From contig FP565575.1 in NCBI GenBank assembly GCA_000091165.1, forward strand, positions 300,001-332,000: a stretch of 32,000 nucleotides of DNA. The letters are read 5' to 3'. The DNA is from Candidatus Methylomirabilis oxygeniifera (GTDB lineage: Bacteria > Methylomirabilota > Methylomirabilia > Methylomirabilales > Methylomirabilaceae). Made by a program: the position numbers and the translations under genes. Shown one piece after another: positions 3,373-30,820 of this stretch; position 1 is the stretch's first letter; every line of letters starts with the position of its first letter. The notes under the pieces were generated by a model. That model did no database searches. It was not told where the DNA came from and saw only the letters and a program-made list of their open reading frames with translations.

Positions 3373-5088
3373 GTGCTCCGTGAGCTGTGTATTACGAATT
3401 TCGCCTTGATCGACGAACTCCGTGTGGAGTTCGGTCCCGGCTTGAACGTGCTCACCGGCGAGACCGGCGCGGGGAAGTCGATCATCATCGATGCGTTGGG
3501 GCTTGCGCTGGGAATGCGGGGCGAGGCGGAGCAGATCCGCACCGGGACCGACGGGGCGACGGTGGAAGCGGCGTTCGATGGCTGCGATGAGGCGGCTCGC
3601 GGGCTGCTCGCCGAAAGCGGGATTGAGTGTCCGCCGGATGAGTTCCTGATCGTGCGGCGCGTACTCCTGCGAGAGGGCAAGAGTAAGGCCTACTTGAACG
3701 GCAGGCTCTCGTCATCGGCGTGGCTTCGGAGTCTCGGCGACCTCCTGGTCGACGTCCATGGCCAGCACCAGGGGGTTGCGCTGAGTCAGCCGTCCCGCCA
3801 GCGGCTGCTCCTCGACGCCTACGCCGGTCTGATAGGCGATGTGGCGGCCTTCCGCACGGTGTATAACAGGCGGCAGACTCTGAGGGCGGAACTGGACGCA
3901 CTCCGCGCGGGCGAGCGGGAGAAGGTGCAGCGTCTTGACCAGCTCCAGTATCAGCGGGGAGAGATCGCTGCCGCACGACTCATCGATGGGGAGGAGGAAG
4001 CGCTCGTTCAGGAGCGGACGATTCTCCTACACGCCGAGCGACTGCACGCAGCGGCGCACCTGGGCTACGAGGGACTGTATGGCGAGCAAGGCGCAGTGGC
4101 GGGTCGGCTGGCGGCGATCGTGTCCAAGCTGAAGGATGCGCAGCGTATCGATCCGAGGCTGCAAGGGGTAGTTGATGCGTGCGAGGCGGCCGTCGCGTCC
4201 ATTGAGGATGCCGCCGCCCAACTCAGAGACTATAGAGAGGATGTAGCCTTTGACCCTGAGCGGCTGGAGCAGGTGGAGGGCCGTTTGCATGAGATCGGTA
4301 AACTGAAGCGGAAATACGGTAGCTCGATTGCCGAGATTCTCGCCTATGCGACCTCGATTGACGAGGAGTTGCAGCGTCTCACGAGTTCAGAGGAGCGGGG
4401 TCAGCGGGTTGAACGGGAACTGGCGACACTGGACGAGACGCTCGCGCAGCGCGCGGCCGACCTCACCGCGCGCCGGAAGGCGGCGGCCGAGCGGCTGGCC
4501 ATAGCGGTACAGGAGGAGTTGCAGGCCCTGAAGATGGAGAAGGCGGTATTTGCCGTCCAGGTCAGGCCTCACCCTGGGTCCGATGGCTTCGCTCTGCAAG
4601 CGTACGGAGCGGACGAGGTGGAGTTCCTGATCACTCCGAATCCCGGTGAAGCATTGAAGCCGCTGGGCCGTATCGCCTCCGGCGGTGAACTGTCACGGGT
4701 GATGCTGGCCGTCAAGGCAATCCTGGCGGCCTCAGATCAGATTCCGACGCTGATCTTTGATGAGGTGGACGTGGGGATCGGCGGTGGGATGGCCGCAGTG
4801 GTAGGCCAGAAGCTCTTGGCTATCGCAGCAGAGCGGCAGGTCCTCTCCATCACGCACCTGCCGCAGATTGCGGCCCTGGCCGATCGCCATTTTTCGATTG
4901 TCAAACGCACCGACGGGCCCCGCACGGAAATTGCCGTCCAGGTGCTGGATGGTGAAGAACGGGTCCGCGAAATTGCCAGGATGCTTGGCGCCAAGGGGCG
5001 ATCAGACGCTCCCCTGCACCATGCTCAGGAAATATTGGATACCGCCAGTCGGTGGAAGGCTTCAAGGGCGCCAGGCGCTTCTACTTGA
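3373..5088 (+). CDS. recN: DNA repair protein RecN
   Basis: GTG start. Walker A LTGETGAGKSIIIDAL, long coiled-coil middle region, signature SGGELSRVMLA, Walker B LIFDEVDVGIGG. Confidence 0.93.
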   Translation: MLRELCITNFALIDELRVEFGPGLNVLTGETGAGKSIIIDALGLALGMRGEAEQIRTGTDGATVEAAFDGCDEAARGLLAESGIECPPDEFLIVRRVLLREGKSKAYLNGRLSSSAWLRSLGDLLVDVHGQHQGVALSQPSRQRLLLDAYAGLIGDVAAFRTVYNRRQTLRAELDALRAGEREKVQRLDQLQYQRGEIAAARLIDGEEEALVQERTILLHAERLHAAAHLGYEGLYGEQGAVAGRLAAIVSKLKDAQRIDPRLQGVVDACEAAVASIEDAAAQLRDYREDVAFDPERLEQVEGRLHEIGKLKRKYGSSIAEILAYATSIDEELQRLTSSEERGQRVERELATLDETLAQRAADLTARRKAAAERLAIAVQEELQALKMEKAVFAVQVRPHPGSDGFALQAYGADEVEFLITPNPGEALKPLGRIASGGELSRVMLAVKAILAASDQIPTLIFDEVDVGIGGGMAAVVGQKLLAIAAERQVLSITHLPQIAALADRHFSIVKRTDGPRTEIAVQVLDGEERVREIARMLGAKGRSDAPLHHAQEILDTASRWKASRAPGAST

Positions 5089-5113
5089 CAGGAGGGTGCA
5101 GGCCGTTTATAGT
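5085..5113 (+). promoter_or_regulatory. Sigma70-type promoter candidate for rplU-rpmA-obg (TTGACA-17 nt-TATAGT)
   Basis: TTGACA at 5085-5090, a 17-nt spacer, TATAGT at 5108-5113, about 90 nt upstream of rplU. A GGAGGCC-GTC-GGCCTCC hairpin lies in the leader at 5146-5162. Confidence 0.55.
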
Positions 5114-5201
5114 ACCGTACGGGTTAATATCCCTAACTTCGCGAGGGAGGCCGTCGGCCTCCTTGCTCTGTTTAGTGGCGTCGATTGAGGAGGACTGAAT
5201 C

Positions 5202-5513
5202 GTGTATGCAATTATTGAGTCGGGAGGCAAGCAACGCCGCGTCAGCCCCGGCGCGCTTGTGACCCTCGAAAAGATTGAGGGTGAGGCGGGGAAACAAGTC
5301 GAGCTGTCGAACGTTCTGATGGTGGCTGACGGCGACCAGGTGAAGATCGGCGCCCCCTATGTACAAGGCGCTGCCGTCGTCAGTGAGATCGTCCGGCAGG
5401 GGCGTGGACCCAAGGTTATGATCTTCAAGTTCAAACGGCGAAAGCGCTATCGGCGCACGCAGGGCCATCGCCAGGCGCAGACCACGTTGCGAATCACAGA
5501 GATTAAGGGATAG
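5202..5513 (+). CDS. rplU: 50S ribosomal protein L21
   Basis: MYAIIESGGKQRRV...KFKRRKRYRRTQGHRQ. GTG start preceded by GAGGAGG. Confidence 0.95.
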   Translation: MYAIIESGGKQRRVSPGALVTLEKIEGEAGKQVELSNVLMVADGDQVKIGAPYVQGAAVVSEIVRQGRGPKVMIFKFKRRKRYRRTQGHRQAQTTLRITEIKG

Positions 5514-5587
5514 GGTAAAAGGTATAGGGTCTAAGGGTCAGGCTAAAGGATTTTTTCTATACCCTACACGCTAGACCCTCCACCCTG
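5507..5587. repeat. Heptamer array, family A: G-rich arm (GGGATAGGGTAAAAGGTATAGGGTCTAAGGGTCAGG), spacer, C-rich arm (TATACCCTACACGCTAGACCCTCCACCCTG)
   Basis: 7-nt periodicity of GGG and CCC read directly. Fills the rplU-rpmA gap. Confidence 0.85.
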
Positions 5588-22723: not shown

Positions 22724-23490
22724 TGACCCCGTCTGTTCTGCTCGGCGTCTGGGTGGCGGCCGGCCTCACCCTGTGTATGTTCAGCTTCCTGTACAAGGAC
22801 AACCCCTTCTTCCGATTCGGGGAGCACCTCTACGTCGGTATCTCGATGGGGTACACCATCGTCCGGATCTATTACGATGTGATGGTCAAAAGCCTCTACA
22901 CCCCGGTTATGCAGGAAGGGAAATGGTGGTTCCTGATCGCGGCCATCCTGGGTCTCCTGGTTCTGACCCGCTTCATCCCGAAGATAAGCTGGCTTAGCCG
23001 GATCTCATTTGCCGTCATCGTGGGTTTCGGTTCCGGCGTTGCTATCCCCCGCATCATCTCCTCGAATATCCTTCAGCAGGTACAGGGGACGTTAAAGCCG
23101 CTCCTCGGAAATGCCGGTCAATCTCTCTTCGGCATGACCCAGTTCAACGCATTACTGATCCTGATCGGCGTTGTGACGGTGCTAATCTATTTCTTCTTCT
23201 CCATCGAGCACAAAGGACCGATCCGGGTCGCGGCGCGGATCGGCATCTACTTCCTCATGATCAACTTCGGCGCCGGCTTTGGCTATACGGTTATGGCCCG
23301 CATGTCGCTGCTCATCGGCCGGTTCGACGATCTGATCCTCTTTAGTTCCCGCGAGTACGGCTACGCCTCGTTGGTGCTGCTCGGCATGATCGCCTTTGGC
23401 CTGTTCATGTGGGAGCGCAGCTCAACCGCCTCCTCCGGCCCCGATCAGGACCCACGCGCCTCTGGGAGCGAGGAGCGCCTCTCTCAGTAG
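22720..23490 (+). CDS. Polytopic integral membrane protein (about 6-7 TM), unknown family; last gene of the operon
   Basis: GTG 22720 or ATG 22723 overlaps the upstream TGA. Hydrophobic segments LLGVWVAAGLTLCMFSFL, WWFLIAAILGLLVL, ISFAVIVGFGSGVAI, ALLILIGVVTVLIYFFF, IGIYFLMINFGAGFGY, LVLLGMIAFGLFMW. Confidence 0.65.
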   Translation: MMTPSVLLGVWVAAGLTLCMFSFLYKDNPFFRFGEHLYVGISMGYTIVRIYYDVMVKSLYTPVMQEGKWWFLIAAILGLLVLTRFIPKISWLSRISFAVIVGFGSGVAIPRIISSNILQQVQGTLKPLLGNAGQSLFGMTQFNALLILIGVVTVLIYFFFSIEHKGPIRVAARIGIYFLMINFGAGFGYTVMARMSLLIGRFDDLILFSSREYGYASLVLLGMIAFGLFMWERSSTASSGPDQDPRASGSEERLSQ

Positions 23491-23498
23491 GTTCAGAC

Positions 23499-23547
23499 CA
23501 TCACCCCTCGCCCCCTTTTGGGGGAGAGGGAGCGGGTGAGGGGGACC
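23499..23547. repeat. GC-rich imperfect palindrome (REP-like) just after the operon stop codon
   Basis: CCATCACCCCTCGCCCCC-TTTT-GGGGGAGAGGGAGCGGGTGAGGGGGA. The ORF-track ORF 23409-23654 only translates this element. Confidence 0.6.
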
Positions 23548-23709
23548 TTGGAGCGATGAGAGACCACTGGCCGGATTACGCCGGTATTCCGCATCTCACA
23601 ATTCCCCTAGACAGTAAAGAGTTTTGCATGGTAGCTATAACGTGGCCTTTTTGAGGGTATCATTTCGCAGCCTGAAAGGGTTGGGATATGGTGGATAGGA
23701 CTGATCGAA

Positions 23710-24042
23710 ATGTCTGAATCGGACTTGGCGTTGATCCGACGTTGTGTCCATGAAGGTCGGCTCCTATGGACCTACCATGTTAACATGCGTTTACGACAAC
23801 GGCGTGTGTCCCGCTCCCTGGTGACGGAAAGTGTGGACAGTTACCGGATTATTGAGCAGTATCCACGAAGCCACACCTCTCGTTACTTGCCGAGTTGTCT
23901 AGTGCGTGCGGAGCATCACGGAGAGATGATTCATATCCTGTTCGCCCTCGACAGGGAAGGTGATACCGTACGAGTCATCACTGTATATCGGCCGGATCCC
24001 GCAGAGTGGGACGCCGATTTTCTGCGGAGGAAAAAGCCATGA
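23710..24042 (+). CDS. DUF4258-family putative toxin
   Basis: IIEQYPRSHTSRYLPSCLV...HILFALDREGDTVRVITVYRPDPAEW fits the DUF4258 pattern. Overlaps its zinc-finger partner by ATGA. Confidence 0.7.
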   Translation: MSESDLALIRRCVHEGRLLWTYHVNMRLRQRRVSRSLVTESVDSYRIIEQYPRSHTSRYLPSCLVRAEHHGEMIHILFALDREGDTVRVITVYRPDPAEWDADFLRRKKP

Positions 24043-24260
24043 AATGTCATATCTGCGGCGGTGAAGTCAAGGTAGCGACATCCGACATGCCGTTTAAACT
24101 CGAAGCAAACCGGATTGTCATCTTCAAGAATCTTCCGGTGCTCCAATGCGGGCAGTGCGGGGAATACCTGATTGAAGACCCCGTCATGGCGCGGGTGGAG
24201 GAAATGCTCGACCGCATTGATGCCTCGGCGGAGCTGGAGATTGTGCGCTACGCGGCGTAA
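24039..24260 (+). CDS. YgiT-type zinc-finger protein (MqsA-like putative antitoxin)
   Basis: MKCHICGG...VLQCGQCGEYLIED has two CxxC pairs. ATG 24039 overlaps the upstream stop. Confidence 0.7.
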   Translation: MKCHICGGEVKVATSDMPFKLEANRIVIFKNLPVLQCGQCGEYLIEDPVMARVEEMLDRIDASAELEIVRYAA

Positions 24261-24266
24261 CGTGGC

Positions 24267-24506
24267 ATGATCACTGAAGCTGACACCTGCAGGAAGTACG
24301 TCTTGCCGAAGCTCTACGCAGCCGGCTGGACCGACGACCAGATCAGCGAGCAAAAGACCTTCACTGACGGGCGGATCGTCGTTGCCGAGCTGGAAGCCTT
24401 GCAAAAAGAGGTGGATCGGCTGAAAGCACTCCAGGCGGAGACCGCTGCCGAACTCGACGCGCTGCTGCCCGCCATCCGCGACCGCGCATTCAAGGGGGAA
24501 CTCTGA
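24267..24506 (+). pseudogene. Type I R-M fossil: HsdR N-terminal stub (about 39 aa) fused to an HsdS C-terminal stub (about 40 aa)
   Basis: MITEADTCRKYVLPKLYAAGWTDDQISEQKTFTDGRIVV is a typical HsdR N-terminus. LEALQKEVDRLKALQAETAAELDALLPAIRDRAFKGEL is a typical HsdS C-terminal coiled coil ending AFKGEL. Junction near 24384. Confidence 0.7.
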
Positions 24507-24688
24507 TGGTCAAGAGTTGCGCTTCACCGATCGCGGCTCCACTCAGAATGAAACCACCGTATGAACGCATCGTTTTGGAGAAACGCGAATCCCGCACTGT
24601 CGCTGCCCTACGCGACGCGCTGCTTCGGAAGCTGCTCTCGGAGGAACTGCGGATGAGAACGGCTGAAAAACTGCTGGAGGTCGAATGA
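24506..24688 (+). pseudogene. Second HsdS C-terminal remnant
   Basis: SRTVAALRDALLRKLLSEELRM matches the conserved HsdS distal motif (LRD.LLPKLLSGE.R). Only 60 codons. Overlaps its neighbours via TGATG and ATGATGA. Confidence 0.6.
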
Positions 24689-25989
24689 TGAGGGAGATGA
24701 TCCTTCTTGGGGCAGGCGCATCTGTCGAAGCGGGTGTGCCTGATACGTACGGAATGACCAGTAAGATCATGGAGTTGTTCCGCAAAGACTACCTCATGCA
24801 ACGTTATGTGGCTGTCATCTCATTCGTGATCGGGGGCCTTCTTTTTCAACATGGAATCAAGGGCCGAGATCCTCTACAAGAGGGTGTGAACGTCGAAGAG
24901 CTTTTCAATGCAGTCCAATTGCTGGCCGAGCGTAATACTCTGGAGGCTGCTCCATTTGTTGAATCGTGGCACCCAATGGTGCAGGAATTGGACAGGGCAC
25001 GCTTGCATGCAGGATCCGGCAGACTCTATTGGTTATTTTACGACCGACTTGTCGGAGCAATGGAGAGCGCTCTGGGGAGTCTACCGTCCGGCAATAACCG
25101 GACCAACCCGAGGGAATTCATGAGAGACTGGGTGAGTCGAGTTAGATATTCGGGCTCATCAGGCGGCTTTGACATCGACCGTGAACTTCAAAAAGTCATT
25201 GAGCAGGTGAAAGATCGACCTGGTGAAGGCGAGATCTTTTCAGGGACCGCAGAATCCATGATTCGTGTCTTGGTCAATATCGTCTGGATCGACCAAGCGG
25301 AACGCGTCGCTTATATGGAGCCGTTAGCTTCATTGGTAGGTGCACAGGGGCGACTTACGGTCGCTACGCTGAATTATGACAACAGCGTCGAACTACTCGC
25401 GCAATCAGCGGGCCTGCCATGTGCAACCGGCATTGAAAAGTGGTCTGAAACCGGTTCGTTCATGCCGAGCAGCGATGGGATCTTTTTGATCAAACTTCAC
25501 GGCTCGATTGATTGGGCGCTGGAAGGCGACAAGAGGTCAGAAGACCGTCCAATGCCTCATAGTGTCATTCGACAGGTAAACGCTGAGGAAATCAAGAAGC
25601 CGGGGTTTCGACCGGGGGTCATATTTGGTCAACGCAATAAACTGACGGCAGAAGGGCCATTTTTGGATCTCTTACGCGCATTCCAACAAGAGTTGTCGCG
25701 CAGCGATATTCTGACTGTGGTGGGGTATTCCTTTCGAGATGATCATGTCAACGAATATATCTCACAATGGCTGAACCAATCGAGAGAGCGGAGGATGCGC
25801 ATCATCAACCCTCATTTTGATCGCAGCCCGAGCCCTTACGCTGGGCAACTCTCACGTTTTGGAGGAACCCAAGTAGAGATAATCCGTGAACCCGCTGGCG
25901 CTGGGTTGGTGAAGTTGTATTCATACTCGATTGTAATCGCACCATCGGTGACGCAACCTTCAAGCGTGTCTGCTGAGCCGACGACATAG
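24685..25989 (+). CDS. Stand-alone SIR2-like (SIR2_2 family) protein, putative NAD+-depleting defence effector
   Basis: Motifs ILLGAGASVEAGVP (Rossmann GAGxS), TLNYDN (catalytic Asn context), KLHGSIDW (catalytic His context), VVGYSFRDDHV. No second domain recognised. GC is visibly lower than in flanking DNA. Confidence 0.75.
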   Translation: MMREMILLGAGASVEAGVPDTYGMTSKIMELFRKDYLMQRYVAVISFVIGGLLFQHGIKGRDPLQEGVNVEELFNAVQLLAERNTLEAAPFVESWHPMVQELDRARLHAGSGRLYWLFYDRLVGAMESALGSLPSGNNRTNPREFMRDWVSRVRYSGSSGGFDIDRELQKVIEQVKDRPGEGEIFSGTAESMIRVLVNIVWIDQAERVAYMEPLASLVGAQGRLTVATLNYDNSVELLAQSAGLPCATGIEKWSETGSFMPSSDGIFLIKLHGSIDWALEGDKRSEDRPMPHSVIRQVNAEEIKKPGFRPGVIFGQRNKLTAEGPFLDLLRAFQQELSRSDILTVVGYSFRDDHVNEYISQWLNQSRERRMRIINPHFDRSPSPYAGQLSRFGGTQVEIIREPAGAGLVKLYSYSIVIAPSVTQPSSVSAEPTT

Positions 25990-26115
25990 CGACAAATGGC
26001 GCTTTTACTGATTCCATCGCCGAAGAAGCCACCCTTGGTTCGATGGCGGCAAAGTAAAACAGCGTAGCGTTCCGGGCTGGCCTGGACCGAGATTGCAGAC
26101 CGATGGAAAGGATTT

Positions 26116-26319
26116 TTAGCGGCGTGATCCGGAGGACGCTGTGGGTTTCTTAGGGCTGTTGACTGTATCGATGGCTTTAGACGCGACAGACGCCAGAGTG
26201 AGACCCAGACGAGCGCCCTCAATAATTGATGAACTCGACACCGCCGTCCAAAGCAACGACTGTCTTTGCGCAGGATCTTTCAAATAGGGGTTCGTTTCGA
26301 TCAGAGGCTTTTTACGCAT
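26116..26319 (-). CDS. Small conserved-looking hypothetical protein (67 aa), convergent with the SIR2 gene
   Basis: The N-terminal ETNPYLKDPAQRQSLLWTAVSSSSIIEG resembles a recurrent small-protein motif I recall from other bacteria but cannot name. The only minus-strand gene I consider plausible. Confidence 0.4.
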   Translation of the reverse strand: MRKKPLIETNPYLKDPAQRQSLLWTAVSSSSIIEGARLGLTLASVASKAIDTVNSPKKPTASSGSRR

Positions 26320-26368
26320 GATTTTTTATATCACACCGTGGGCGGCTGAGCACCATGAAAGTGCAACC

Positions 26369-26491
26369 TTGAACGTCGCCCAACTCGCTGAATCCATCGT
26401 CGAAAACGCAGCTTTCGCCTGCCTGGAGAACCTCGGCTGGAGGGCACTCGCGGGCTGGCCGTACCGCATAGTGGCTACGCCCTCGCTCTGA
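26369..26491 (+). pseudogene. HsdR N-terminal remnant (second, different family)
   Basis: Manual translation from TTG 26369 gives LNVAQLAESIVENAAFACLENLGWRALAG..., matching the HsdR N-terminal pattern (ES.VE.AAL.WL..LGW). It stops after 40 codons. Confidence 0.5.
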
Positions 26492-26562
26492 CCCGCTCCT
26501 GGCGATAGAGGCGGCAAGATCCCGTCAGGTCTTGCAGTCGGCTGTCCATGATCCTTTCATTT

Positions 26563-26614
26563 GGCCGAACTACAACCTTGCAATTAGCCGACCCATAAGG
26601 TTACAATTGGCCGA
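26563..26614. repeat. Upstream copy of the flanking direct repeat: two 23-nt units GGCCGAACTACAACCTTGCAATT / AGCCGACCCATAAGGTTACAATT + GGCCGA
   Basis: Read directly. AACCTT...AAGGTT forms an internal inverted repeat. Ends at the A of the ATPase start codon. Confidence 0.75.
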
Positions 26615-27861
26615 TGCCGGAGACCGCCCTCTACCCACGTTACGCTGAGCCTCGCCTCGTCGAGGCGCTGGCCGATTCGCCCGTGGTGCTAATCCATGGC
26701 CCGCGCCAGGTCGGTAAGACGACCCTCGCCCGAGTGGTCGGGGAACCCAGGGGATACGCTTATGTCAGTTTCGATGACGACGTCGCGCGCGGCGCCGCAG
26801 AGGCTGATCCGGTGGGCTTCGTCGCCGATCTGCCGGACCGGGCGATCCTGGATGAAGTGCAACGGGTACCGACGCTCTTCACCGCATTGAAGACGGCGGT
26901 CGATCGTAGCCGTAAGGCCGGCCGTTTCATGCTGACCGGCTCGACCAACGTGCTGCTGGTGCCGAACCTCGCCGACTCGCTGGCAGGTCGCATGGCGATC
27001 CTGCGGTTGTACCCGCTGGCGCAGTGCGAGCTGGAGCGGCGCGCATCGGGTTTCCTCGACGTCCTCTTCGAGGGCCGGTTCAAGATCCGGCGAACCGAGC
27101 GGCTGGCTCACCGGCTGGCGGAGCGGATCGTGGCGGGCGGATACCCGGCCGCGCTCACGCGCGCCGCTGTCCGTCGGCGCGCCGCATGGTACCGCGATTA
27201 TCTTGACGCATTGGTCCAGCGCGACGTGCGCGATCTGGCCCGCGTCAGCTCACTTGACGCGCTTCCAAGGCTGCTCGCACTGGCGGCGGCGCAGACTGCG
27301 CGGCTGCTGAACGTGTCGGATCTGGCTGCGCCCTTCCAGCTCAGTCGGCCGACGATCCGCGATTACGTCACGTTACTTGAGCGGGTGTTCCTGCTGGAGA
27401 CGTTGCCGCCATGGCACAGCAACCGCCTGAGCCGACTTATCAAGACGCCGAAGCTGCATGTCGGCGATACCGGACTTGCCTGCGCGCTGCTCGGCGTAGA
27501 TGCGGTCGCCGTTGCTGCCGATCGACCCCTGTTGGGCCAGCTTCTCGAAACCTTTGTGTTTCAGGAATTACGACGTCAGGCGAGCTGGCATGAGGAGCCG
27601 TTGGTGTTCTTTCATTACCGGGATAAGGACGGTATAGAAGTGGACATCGTCATCGAGCGCGGTGCGCGTGTGCTAGCGGGTGTAGAGGTAAAGGCGGCCG
27701 CCACGGTGACTGCAGCCGATTTCAGTGGCCTGCGCAAGCTGAGGGACGCTGCGGGCAAACGTTTTGCCGCCGGCGTTGTCCTCTACGATGGGGAGACCAG
27801 CGCGAGTTTCGGCGAAGGACTGCATGCCGTTCCGTTGCGTGCGCTCTGGGAAATGACGTGA
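26614..27861 (+). CDS. AAA-family ATPase with C-terminal DUF4143-type domain
   Basis: Walker A LIHGPRQVGKTTLA, Walker B AILDEVQRVP, the common AAA_14 + DUF4143 architecture, and a C-terminal restriction-endonuclease-like EVDIVIE...GVEVK. GC is visibly higher than in neighbouring DNA. Confidence 0.8.
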   Translation: MPETALYPRYAEPRLVEALADSPVVLIHGPRQVGKTTLARVVGEPRGYAYVSFDDDVARGAAEADPVGFVADLPDRAILDEVQRVPTLFTALKTAVDRSRKAGRFMLTGSTNVLLVPNLADSLAGRMAILRLYPLAQCELERRASGFLDVLFEGRFKIRRTERLAHRLAERIVAGGYPAALTRAAVRRRAAWYRDYLDALVQRDVRDLARVSSLDALPRLLALAAAQTARLLNVSDLAAPFQLSRPTIRDYVTLLERVFLLETLPPWHSNRLSRLIKTPKLHVGDTGLACALLGVDAVAVAADRPLLGQLLETFVFQELRRQASWHEEPLVFFHYRDKDGIEVDIVIERGARVLAGVEVKAAATVTAADFSGLRKLRDAAGKRFAAGVVLYDGETSASFGEGLHAVPLRALWEMT

Positions 27862-27901
27862 ACAGTGCCGGGGTCTTCCATCTCCCAGCGCCTGTACGCG
27901 C

Positions 27902-27945
27902 ACAACCCCTTACAATCGGCCGAACCATAAGGTTGCAATTGCCGA
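27902..27945. repeat. Downstream copy of the flanking direct repeat (ACAACCCCTTACAATC GGCCGAACCATAAGGTTGCAATT GCCGA)
   Basis: Aligns with 26572-26614 at roughly 38 of 46 positions, by hand. Confidence 0.7.
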
Positions 27946-28084
27946 CGCGGACGCTGCTGGTGGGCGGGGACGGGATTCCGGTAGAAGAGTTCCTGCTCCA
28001 ACCGGTCACCCATTGGGTCACGCGATGAGCGCGATAGACAACACGAGACATGTCACCAGTTGTGCGGGTTAGAAGGAGACCAAC

Positions 28085-28537
28085 ATGTCAGAGCATGGCG
28101 TAACCGTTACGTGGCGGCGCACATCCGCGAGTTTTGACTACGAGGCGTATAACCGCGATCACGCCTGGTCGTTTGACGCCGGCATCCAGGTCCGCGCGTC
28201 AGCCGCCCCTGCCTATCGCGGCGACCCCGACTGCGTCGATCCCGAAGAGGCGTTTGTCGCGGCCCTGGCCGGGTGTCACATGCTGACCTTTCTGGCTGTT
28301 GCGTCGCGCAAGCGACTGATCGTCGATGCGTACGAAGACCACGCGACAGGGTTTATGGAGAAGAACGCCGACGGTAAGCTGGCCGTCACGCGGGTTGTTC
28401 TCCGACCGCGAGTTCGATTCAGCGGCTCTTCGGCGCTATCCCACGACGAACTCGCGAGACTCCACGAGCAGGCCCATCACGGTTGCATCATCGCCAACTC
28501 GGTACTGACAGCCATCACGATCGAGCCAGCCGACTGA
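28085..28537 (+). CDS. OsmC/Ohr-family peroxiredoxin-like protein
   Basis: PEEAFVAALAGCHMLTFL and HHGCIIANS are the two conserved Cys contexts of the OsmC family. Confidence 0.75.
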   Translation: MSEHGVTVTWRRTSASFDYEAYNRDHAWSFDAGIQVRASAAPAYRGDPDCVDPEEAFVAALAGCHMLTFLAVASRKRLIVDAYEDHATGFMEKNADGKLAVTRVVLRPRVRFSGSSALSHDELARLHEQAHHGCIIANSVLTAITIEPAD

Positions 28538-29560: not shown

Positions 29561-29803
29561 ATGACCAGCATCACAGCCACTGAGGCTCGAAAAAGACTGT
29601 ACGCGCTTCTGGACGATGTGGCCGATTCTCATGAACCTATCCAGATCGCTGGCAAGCGCCATTCGGCGGTGCTCGTATCGGAAGTCGACTGGCGTGCTAT
29701 CCAGGAAACACTGTACCTGAATGCCGTCCCAGGAATGCGCGCCTCGATCCGCAAGGGCTTGAAAACGCCCGTCGAGAAGTGTCATGAGGAGCTTGATTGG
29801 TAG
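29561..29803 (+). CDS. yefM: Phd/YefM-family antitoxin
   Basis: ITATEARKRLYALLDDVADSHEPIQIAGKRHSAVLVSEVDWRAIQETLYL. Confidence 0.88.
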   Translation: MTSITATEARKRLYALLDDVADSHEPIQIAGKRHSAVLVSEVDWRAIQETLYLNAVPGMRASIRKGLKTPVEKCHEELDW

Positions 29804-30063
29804 GATGGAAGTTCGTCTACACCAGTCAGGCTCGGCGTGACGCCAAGAAGTTAGCGCATTCCGGACTCAAATCGGAGGCGGAGCGCCTGCTCAAAATCCT
29901 GACACGGAATCCCTATCAAAATCCCCCGCCGTACGAGCGACTTGTCGGAGACCTTGCCGGCGCCGTATCCCGCAGGATTACCATCCAACACCGGCTCGTA
30001 TATCAGGTACTGGACGACATCAAAACTGTCAAGGTTATCCGTCTGTGGACCCATTACGAATAA
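29797..30063 (+). CDS. yoeB: Txe/YoeB-family toxin
   Basis: LVGDLAGAVSRRITIQHRLVYQVLDDIKTVKVIRLWTHYE. TTG start overlaps yefM by 7 nt. Confidence 0.85.
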   Translation: MVGWKFVYTSQARRDAKKLAHSGLKSEAERLLKILTRNPYQNPPPYERLVGDLAGAVSRRITIQHRLVYQVLDDIKTVKVIRLWTHYE

Positions 30064-30309: not shown

Positions 30310-30594
30310 ATGGCCCTGGTGTTTGAATGGGATCCAAGGAAGGCTCGCAGGAACCTCGCGATACACGGAGTGTCCTTCGACGAGGCCAGCACGGCATTCC
30401 AGGATCCCTTGTCGAAGACGATCGACGATCCACTGCATTCTGAAGATGAAGAGCGCTTCGTGCTGCTTGGCCATTCCCATCGAAATCGCCTCTTGGTCGT
30501 GGTACATACCGAACGGGGTGGCCGAATACGACTCATCAGCGCGCGGCTCGCAGCCAACAAAGAAAGGGTGATGTATGAAGCGAGTAAGGAATGA
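30310..30594 (+). CDS. brnT: BrnT-family toxin (DUF497)
   Basis: FEWDPRKARRNLAIHGVSFDEASTAFQDP...RIRLISARLAANKER. Confidence 0.85.
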   Translation: MALVFEWDPRKARRNLAIHGVSFDEASTAFQDPLSKTIDDPLHSEDEERFVLLGHSHRNRLLVVVHTERGGRIRLISARLAANKERVMYEASKE

Positions 30595-30820
30595 TCCCGA
30601 CATGCTGGAAGAGTACGATTTTAGCGGCGGCGTGCAAGGCAAGTACGCGAAACGATACGCTGAAGGCGCCAACGTGGTCGTCATTGATCCCGACGTGGCG
30701 GAGTATTTCCCAGACCACGACGCGGTCAATGAAGCGCTACGCGGGCTGGCCGCCATCATTAAGAGACGGCGGAAGGCCGAACCAGCGGCTCCACGCGGAC
30801 GCACTGCCGCGCGCCGCTGA
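30575..30820 (+). CDS. brnA: BrnA-like antitoxin partner of BrnT
   Basis: MLEEYDFSGGVQGKYAKRYAEGANVVVIDPDVAEYFPDHDAVNEALRGLA. Overlaps brnT by 20 nt. Confidence 0.75.
   Translation: MKRVRNDPDMLEEYDFSGGVQGKYAKRYAEGANVVVIDPDVAEYFPDHDAVNEALRGLAAIIKRRRKAEPAAPRGRTAARR

Follow-up and report, generated by a model that had tools for sequence, protein, structure and literature searches.

We describe a SIR2_2-type gene at positions 24685-25989, forward strand, of a 32,000-nucleotide (nt) stretch of Candidatus Methylomirabilis oxygeniifera DNA (assembly GCA_000091165.1, contig FP565575.1, positions 300,001 to 332,000), hereafter called the window. The gene follows two short open reading frames (ORFs) that are remnants of type I restriction-modification (R-M) genes and, to judge by its sequence, it probably encodes an intact anti-phage protein that destroys nicotinamide adenine dinucleotide (NAD+). 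SIR2 proteins that cleave NAD+ (NADases) form one of the major classes of suicide effector in bacteria. To our knowledge, every characterised SIR2 NADase has a separate or appended sensor, be it a prokaryotic Argonaute (pAgo), HerA, SLOG/ThsB or the sensor regions of the DSR proteins. A first-pass annotation of the window had read the gene as a stand-alone NADase embedded in a decayed type I R-M locus. The gene, the motifs of its protein and the ORFs upstream of it are listed below, with lengths in amino acids (aa).

24267-24506, forward strand: chimeric ORF of 79 aa, a deletion scar (blastn against locus L001, junction alignment, translations)
24506-24688, forward strand: hsdS stub ORF of 60 aa (similarity to hsdS C-termini; blast against the loci)
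24685-25989, forward strand: SIR2_2-type gene, 434 aa, uninterrupted, with an alternative start ATG at 24688 (ORF call, Pfam)
24709-24723, forward strand: Rossmann loop G9-S13 of the SIR2 protein
24724-25359, forward strand: helical insert, residues ~14-225 (AlphaFold model of the SIR2 protein)
25372-25383, forward strand: motif N230-Y-D-N233
25498-25500, forward strand: H272, a catalytic residue position
25723-25740, forward strand: motif G347-D352

The SIR2 gene and its family

The ORF is uninterrupted over its full length, as first described. The SIR2_2 model of Pfam (PF13289) matches residues 225-369 only, at 38.9 bits (cut-off 24.5), and scans with Pfam, NCBIfam and PADLOC returned no second domain, which agrees with the earlier description of the protein. 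The motifs given there were found in their places, namely G9-A-G-A-S13, T228-L-N230-Y-D-N233, K270-L-H272-G-S and G347-Y-S-F-R-D352, and their columns are invariant or nearly so across alignments of 31 and of 109 homologues. G9, G11, S13, N230 and H272 are invariant in both alignments and are all kept in the window protein; the Asn and His contexts are thus preserved, and a loss of catalytic residues, looked for on these alignments, was not found. The protein contains a single Cys and therefore lacks the zinc module of deacetylase sirtuins.

Between the Rossmann loop and the NYD motif lies the unassigned insert that had already been noticed, although it measures 216 residues and not about 190. 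This segment is entirely helical in the AlphaFold model (predicted local distance difference test score (pLDDT) 77.6, predicted template modelling score 0.73), in which confidence is high at residues 1-80 and 180-230 and low at 107-168. About 37 aa are absent from the window lineage (P0001, P0003, P0006), in the most variable and least confidently modelled part of the insert, and this loss is old, because it is shared by homologues that are just 70-79% identical (P0003, P0006). A C-terminal truncation of the window protein was considered and dismissed; in the homologue alignment the tail varies throughout the family. The GC content of the gene is 51.6%, below that of the whole window (59.1%) and of the next gene (65.0%), as had been remarked, and this low value suggests horizontal acquisition.

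A word-indexed search returned 793 homologues, the best 120 of which are nearly all 380-500 aa long, with about 95% query coverage and SIR2_2 as the sole domain. When 1.84 billion cluster representatives were searched exhaustively, 696 had E ≤ 1e-30, which puts the family at about 700 clusters at 50% identity, and 2828 passed the looser threshold of E ≤ 1e-3; the top 150 representatives span 223-578 aa and are mostly 340-500 aa. Neither PADLOC v2 nor NCBIfam holds a model dedicated to this family. No homologue was found in phage genomes, and plasmids carry just distant relatives (31-33% identity).

Restriction-modification remnants upstream of the gene

The nearest homologue of the window protein (P0001, 94% identical) is encoded in a Candidatus Methylomirabilis sp. 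assembly (loci L001-L004). The array there occupies the same chromosomal site and comprises an intact hsdR (789 aa, EcoEI_R_C), hsdM (515 aa) and hsdS (383 aa), a 60-aa ORF and the SIR2 gene. By blastn, L001 615-733, the start of hsdR, matches window positions 24267-24385 at 83% identity, and L001 5684-7691 matches 24398-26407 at 94%. The approximately 4.95 kb between the two L001 matches, which hold the rest of hsdR, all of hsdM and most of hsdS, are missing from the window. At the junction lies the chimeric ORF, in which hsdR codons 1-40 (24267-24386) are joined in frame to the last 39 hsdS codons and the stop (24387-24506). Its product consists of HsdR residues 1-40 (MITEADTCRKYVLPKLYAAGWTDDQISEQKTFTDGRIVVA) followed by the last 39 residues of HsdS (…LDALLPAIRDRAFKGEL), and residues 2-48 match the NCBIfam model restrict_EcoAI for the R subunit of the EcoAI family. 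This hsdR'-'hsdS fusion is in frame and flanked by DNA that matches L001; the R-M system of the window was removed by a single in-frame deletion, without erosion or point-mutation decay, so that the term 'decayed' does not fit the locus.

The 60-aa ORF between this scar and the SIR2 gene is 100% nucleotide-identical to L001 5792-5974. Its last 45 residues (about 14-58) are 40-60% identical to the hsdS C-termini in L005, L108, L110 and L097, which are unrelated loci whose hsdS directly abuts SIR2, and the motif LLPKLLSGE, conserved in hsdS C-termini, has become LLRKLLSEE. Because of this C-terminal similarity and the drifted motif, we read the ORF as the remnant of an older, different hsdS, the native predecessor of the SIR2 family; it is now probably merely a leader for translational coupling. 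Its start overlaps the stop of the chimeric ORF (TGATG, 24504), and the start of SIR2 overlaps its own stop (GAATGATGA, ATGATGA; 24683-24691), an overlap with an hsdS remnant that the first-pass annotation had correctly seen. Chimeric ORF, stub and SIR2 gene thus form a chain of three ORFs linked by overlapping stop and start codons.

The R-M system beside SIR2 in L001 belongs to another type I family, about 30% identical to the native one. The EcoAI-like system deleted in the window is not the native partner of the SIR2 family; that partner had already been reduced to the 60-aa stub. Both remnants lie upstream of SIR2, and no hsdR remnant was found 3' of the gene: the ORF at 26318-26491 has no HSDR_N (Pfam) or NCBIfam match, and the segment 25980-26640 has no blastx match to any HsdR of the fetched loci. 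Positions 25990-26407 are common to L001 at 89% identity (373 of 418 positions identical).

Identity to L001 is uneven across the scar: the hsdR start is 83% identical, the 60-aa stub 100% and the DNA downstream of SIR2 89%, and within the SIR2 gene the synonymous divergence (dS) is 0.04 in the first half and 0.19 in the second. This mosaic suggests recombination over simple vertical divergence.

Genomic neighbourhood of the homologues

In total, 177 loci were fetched by exact-protein look-ups and by scanning reference genomes and metagenomes. They were annotated with our own ORF calls and with iterative profiles seeded with the type I subunits of L001, L005, L009 and L097; gene calls are ORF-based, and Pfam annotation of the fetched loci served as cross-check where available. 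Lineage counts rest on this sample, which is biased to what the pattern scans could recover. Proteins scoring ≥ 400 bits to the family profile were taken as the close family, which comprises 31 lineages at 90% identity, 27 of them with assessable flanks.

The family is usually carried inside type I R-M operons and is embedded in about half of the lineages. An hsdS gene ends -61 to +46 nt from the SIR2 start on the same strand in 12 of the 27 lineages, with a 4-nt ATGA stop/start overlap between hsdS and SIR2 in at least seven of these 12. Type I genes are nearby in another 4 of 27, for example hsdR 2 nt downstream in L018, and the flanks hold no type I gene in the remaining 11 of 27. The full native order is hsdM-hsdS-SIR2-(cargo)-hsdR, where extra cargo (DarTG, AbiE, DUF3800, AAA ATPases) always stands after SIR2 and never between hsdS and SIR2. 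Whether hsdS-SIR2-hsdR embedding recurs had been posed as a check, and at family level it does, with hsdS abutting as above and hsdR downstream in 10 lineages. All-against-all clustering of the three genes on either side recovered HsdS/HsdM (15 lineages) and HsdR (10 lineages) as the only recurrent neighbours. The ~245-aa ORFs that follow SIR2 (one of them DUF3800) were considered as a conserved second gene and rejected, being unrelated to each other in the same clustering. The expected defence context of the homologues was likewise borne out, the neighbours being restriction or defence genes. Among the 11 lineages without a type I gene, several stand beside Mrr_cat, Bpu10I or an HSDR_N-like nuclease plus a methylase, one lies on a mobile element, and others are amid housekeeping genes.

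The native embeddings share one type I family, in which HsdM is 54-86% identical between loci and HsdR is about 1040 aa long with T1RH-like_C. SIR2 identity partly follows HsdM identity (Spearman rho 0.50, with a p-value that is only indicative because the pairs are not independent). On a neighbour-joining tree embedded and solo members are intermixed; similarity is 45.6% between the groups and 47% and 45% within them, and no alignment column is specific to embedded or solo members.

Several single loci add to this picture. In the P0022 locus, a SIR2 gene (4147-5544, 51% identical) is overlapped at its start by a 61-aa ORF (3965-4150), which may be a second hsdS stub kept as leader; this gene adjoins a RES-domain protein and recombinases, and hsdR lies on the opposite strand. 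In L009 (6813-8004) the hsdS before SIR2 appears frameshifted, its true C-terminus (…LRDTLLPKLLSGELRPKQRG) being encoded by a 47-aa ORF of its own, which overlaps the start of SIR2, and hsdR is split by a DUF559 insertion. The gene right upstream of SIR2 in L029 (8923-9969, Solirubrobacteraceae) has a weak SIR2_2 match (E 5e-4) and may be a tandem SIR2 paralogue. In L055 (2588-11221) a related 410-aa SIR2 (~165 bits to the family profile) directly follows HmaC (PADLOC, 892 bits), within an Hma system whose other genes include a DUF1156 methylase and a YhcG nuclease; the same is seen in L062, L140 and L143, and the Hma system is a further embedding host of the same SIR2 clade.

Relation to known SIR2 systems and to PrrC

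The best profile match of the window protein is bAgaS, the effector of the long-B Argonaute system BPAS (PADLOC Aga_SIR2 'Class II', 135 bits, E ~1e-40). Both are single-domain proteins with a SIR2_2 core; N157/N167 of pAgo-linked bAgaS proteins are the counterparts of N230 in the alignment. The match is partial (residues 193-390), whereas true bAgaS proteins reach 397-405 bits end to end; a full-length match to Aga_SIR2 was not obtained. In GbbAgaS, the corresponding N155 is essential, and N155A abolishes NAD+ depletion and toxicity (PMC10620215). bAgaS alone kills cells, and pAgo suppresses it and then activates it upon recognition of an invader (PMC10620215).

Distant relatives of the window protein (~350 aa, 25-32% identical) reach about 400 bits over their full length with the Aga_SIR2 models and are preceded by a ~630-aa gene with a Piwi domain that scores about 680 bits on pAgo_II; by these matches they classify as BPAS systems, composed of a long-B pAgo and bAgaS. 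With a pAgo profile built from these distant loci, pAgo was found immediately before the SIR2 gene in 43 of the 58 distant loci that could be assessed and in none of the 59 assessable close and intermediate loci scoring ≥ 230 bits. A pAgo partner of the window gene was thereby ruled out, with none in the window and none beside those 59 relatives. A multi-gene system whose partner is missing here had been named as a result that would speak against a stand-alone gene; the BPAS match, being partial and without pAgo in any of these relatives, amounts to likeness at the superfamily level only. The helical insert grows from about 140 aa in bAgaS to about 175 in the intermediate group, 216 in the window protein and about 253 in the typical close family, which makes it 75-110 aa longer in the window protein and its relatives than in bAgaS. 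BPAS pairs are also often inside type I R-M loci, in the order hsdM-hsdS-pAgo-SIR2, and because these nested pairs repeat the same position, both branches of the SIR2 clade favour the slot after hsdS. The nested BPAS loci are L082, L091, L170, L163, L150, L171, L059, L066, L077, L159, L145, L169 and L076, with pAgo at ~8.0-10.0 kb (in loci with 10-kb flanks) and hsdS ending ~1.9 kb upstream of SIR2 in every case.

By fold, the best match is the SIR2 of SIR2-HerA (Nezha / GAO_19; 8sub, 8w9l, 8uae, 8yhx), with E ~1e-10 and template modelling scores of 0.5-0.6; the alignment covers the helical insertion, and identity is only ~15%. The SIR2-HerA proteins are also the best PDB matches of the sequence profile. 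SPARSA, KomBC, sirtuins, ThsA (8btp) and DSR2 (8z18) follow in the fold search. On the NCBIfam model SIR2_antiphage (NF042942) the window protein scores 44.4 bits against a cut-off of 500, and likeness to SIR2-HerA is at the level of fold only. Neither flanking element of the window gene is HerA (the hsdR/hsdS remnants on one side, a DUF4143/AAA_14 ATPase gene on the other; no HerA-specific profile was run). HerA or any other conserved second gene was rejected as a family partner, type I subunits alone recurring in the neighbour clustering, in which HerA's own profile was not searched. SIR2/HerA pairs have been reported inserted between R-M genes (PMC11514479).

The window protein resembles DSR1, DSR2 and ThsA, which are weaker fold matches, in that sensor and effector would lie on one chain. 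DSR1 and DSR2 carry large sensor regions, at about 1000 aa, and ThsA carries SLOG and needs ThsB. At 434 aa the window protein is short of the DSR size and has no appended region, only its internal helical insert. It also differs from ThsA of Thoeris in that it has no SLOG or other second domain, and no TIR neighbour recurs in the clustering. Profile, fold and neighbour comparisons together place it in the defence SIR2_2 superfamily, as a sister of bAgaS and outside BPAS, SIR2-HerA, Thoeris and DSR. The protein is not an orphan, its nearest described relatives being bAgaS and, by fold, the SIR2 of SIR2-HerA.

In its genomic position the family has another parallel. The EcoprrI locus has the order hsdM-hsdS-prrC-hsdR, and the slot of the SIR2 family between hsdS and hsdR is the same as that of prrC. 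PrrC consists of an ABC-ATPase and a HEPN-like nuclease that cuts tRNA-Lys, and it is regulated by the R-M complex. The two proteins are unrelated; regulation by R-M is shown for PrrC, and the likeness of the SIR2 family to it is one of genomic position only. PrrC, the archetype of R-M-embedded defence, is found nearly only inside type I R-M (bioRxiv 10.1101/2024.01.29.577857), whereas only about half the lineages of the SIR2 family are embedded. By 'guilt by embedding', phage-defence candidates have been picked among genes nested in type I R-M, BREX, DISARM and Hma loci, and SIR2 is unmentioned in the main text of that study (bioRxiv 10.1101/2024.01.29.577857). None of the PADLOC PDC models matches the window protein, whereas its neighbour at 26614-27861 does have such a match (PDC-S01). 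SIR2/HerA pairs in R-M loci and the general embedding concept were already known; for a single-gene SIR2 coupled to hsdS, searches confined to the open-access literature found no description.

Selection on the window copy

Window and L001 SIR2 differ by 31 synonymous and 26 non-synonymous changes, and the ratio of non-synonymous to synonymous divergence (dN/dS) is 0.24 for the whole gene, with 0.18 for the catalytic half and 0.49 for the N-terminal half, the latter on few sites. This comparison indicates purifying selection on the window gene. Polarised by outgroups, the 25 amino-acid differences comprise 12 derived in the window lineage, which is without R-M, and 11 derived in the R-M-bearing sister; the window-specific I118F is the sole derived change in a column that is > 90% conserved. 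The polarised substitutions give no sign of faster evolution or relaxed constraint after the loss of R-M. The SIR2 gene has outlasted two successive R-M neighbours, the native hsdS, now a stub, and the second R-M system, now deleted.

Proposed function and alternatives

The first-pass annotation had left two possibilities side by side, a self-sensing effector and one whose partner had been the R-M system. For the window locus we favour the former and propose an autonomous effector of abortive infection that depletes NAD+, a proposal to which we give an even chance. We infer its NADase activity, its defence role, autoinhibition by the insert and its expression. The Rossmann/SIR2 core with Asn230 and His272 would hydrolyse NAD+ after activation, and the helical insert, together with the invariant FGQRNKLTAEGPFLDLL loop, would hold the enzyme off and would either respond to a cue from infection or promote oligomerisation. 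In this way the insert would stand in for the separate partner (pAgo, HerA, SLOG/ThsB) of characterised SIR2 systems. The family would have arisen as a type I R-M accessory in the order hsdM-hsdS-SIR2-hsdR, translationally coupled to hsdS and able to work without R-M, and the type I operon would be its ancestral and still frequent carrier and its context of co-expression ('embedding', bioRxiv 10.1101/2024.01.29.577857). The window gene now stands behind two short leader ORFs and probably behind the upstream toxin-antitoxin (TA) pair. This proposal is consistent with the conserved catalytic columns, the fold matches to defence SIR2 proteins, the lack of a partner gene, the 11 solo lineages among 27, the likeness of embedded and solo members, the survival of SIR2 without R-M and the surrounding defence and TA island with three TA pairs and PDC-S01; the initial view of an intact single-domain SIR2 with NADase residues is borne out.

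Several points weigh against autonomy. bAgaS is lethal alone and is controlled by its partner, so that a partner-free relative would need autoinhibition; the part of the insert at residues 107-168 has pLDDT < 50 and is thus a low-confidence model, and about 37 aa of the insert are missing in the very lineage of the window. The conserved ATGA coupling to hsdS exceeds what random insertion into a hotspot would give, as do the partial co-divergence with HsdM/HsdR (rho 0.50) and the single type I family. A type I R-M system elsewhere in the genome, beyond the 32-kb window, could act in trans, and the R-M deletion could be too recent for selection to act. The main alternative is that the native type I R-M complex is itself the sensor and regulator of SIR2, which we regard as possible but less likely. 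SIR2 would then be a latent NADase, silenced and signalled by the surrounding complex and guarding it in the manner of PrrC, and would fire once that complex is disturbed by anti-restriction proteins of phages or by stalled restriction; the window gene would be a sensor-less orphan that is silent, dependent on R-M elsewhere or heading for loss. The slot identical to that of prrC in EcoprrI speaks for such a guard, as do the 12 hsdS-abutting lineages with their ATGA overlaps, the placement of all other cargo behind SIR2, and a single type I family in the native cases whose HsdM identity is followed by that of SIR2. The hsdS C-terminal stubs that remain on SIR2 after replacement of hsdS (window and L001, with the 61-aa ORF of P0022 likewise placed) point the same way, and bAgaS sets the precedent of a SIR2 of the same branch that is silenced and triggered by a partner. 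Against it stand the 11 of 27 lineages without a type I gene in the fetched flanks and the lack of residues specific to embedded members. Moreover, the lineage of the window and L001 lost the native R-M family entirely while SIR2 stayed intact under purifying selection, and the later R-M deletion could evidently be survived, which speaks against R-M acting like an antitoxin.

It is unlikely that the gene, for all its intact look, is a passenger that the operon deletion left without function and that has yet to gather disabling mutations. Both R-M partners are gone, the lineage has its ~37-aa insert deletion, I118F hits a column that is > 90% conserved, and dN/dS is 0.49 in the N-terminal half, on few sites; yet no frameshift or stop is present, all invariant residues are retained, the insert deletion is old and tolerated (P0003 and P0006, 70-79% identical), and the overall dN/dS of 0.24 comes with substitutions spread symmetrically between the window lineage and the R-M-bearing sister. 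The overlapping ORFs also still form their chain, so that translation of SIR2 is still plausible. Equally improbable in our view is an activity other than NADase, such as a SIR2-type deacylase or ADP-ribosyltransferase that acts on an R-M subunit, on DNA or on a phage protein, for instance in the control of restriction alleviation. The SIR2 fold does include deacylases and ADP-ribosyltransferases, sirtuins appear among the lower fold matches, and operon coupling to hsdS would fit an R-M regulator too. The protein with its one Cys has no zinc-binding module, however, its sequence falls in SIR2_2 and not in the sirtuin family, the nearest relatives by sequence and fold are all NADase defence effectors, and the solo members in many lineages do not fit a dedicated R-M regulator.

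With the autonomous effector as the favoured reading, the family is a candidate for a minimal NADase that regulates itself, and its internal helical insert could be studied as a sensor. It is a large single-domain SIR2 family without a PADLOC model, and its sole recurrent partner is a translationally coupled type I R-M system; it would let one test whether the 'guard of restriction' logic of PrrC was reinvented via NAD+ depletion. L001 with R-M and the window without it, at 94% protein identity, form a natural control pair. Should the guard exist, the R-M complex would stand for SIR2 where pAgo stands for bAgaS, restriction-modification would for the first time be directly coupled to NAD+ depletion, and the window deletion and the travelling hsdS stubs would record how a guard turns autonomous.

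Downstream region and surrounding island

Further features around the SIR2 gene are the following.

within 23710-24260: TA pair of a DUF4258 toxin and a YgiT/MqsA-type zinc-finger antitoxin (Pfam and library scans)
25990-26613: spacer without identifiable gene (blastn, blastx, library scans)
26116-26319, reverse strand: short ORF without family match, in the downstream spacer
26318-26491, forward strand: short ORF without family match, in the downstream spacer
26614-27861: DUF4143/AAA_14 ATPase gene, next gene after SIR2, PADLOC candidate PDC-S01 (561 bits)
within 29561-30063: YefM/YoeB-like TA pair (library scans)
within 30310-30820: BrnT/BrnA-like TA pair (library scans)

The minus-strand ORFs that overlap or follow the 3' end of SIR2, at 25836-26222 and 26116-26319 and, in L002, a 160-aa ORF, match no family and were not counted as genes. 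An Rfam scan of 23400-28200 returned no family. The scan for promoters and terminators is uninformative, because its counts are the same as in shuffled sequence. The chimeric ORF begins 6 nt past the DUF4258/YgiT pair, and co-expression of the SIR2 chain of ORFs with this pair is plausible as an inference. The pair is missing from L001 and is placed between the old upstream region of hsdR and the hsdR start.

Two 34-nt direct repeats (26576-26609 and 27908-27941, 85% identical) enclose the PDC-S01 gene, and a third, degenerate copy lies at 26553. The whole block is missing from the sister locus L001, where homology restarts directly past the right repeat, and 26553-27941 looks like an inserted single-gene cassette. 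In L001 about 120 bp from the 3' end of the membrane-protein gene upstream occur as direct copies at both ends of the whole defence island (L001 1-254 and 8999-9121, matching window 23252-23496), and the window has the left copy only; this duplication around the L001 island suggests site-specific integration.

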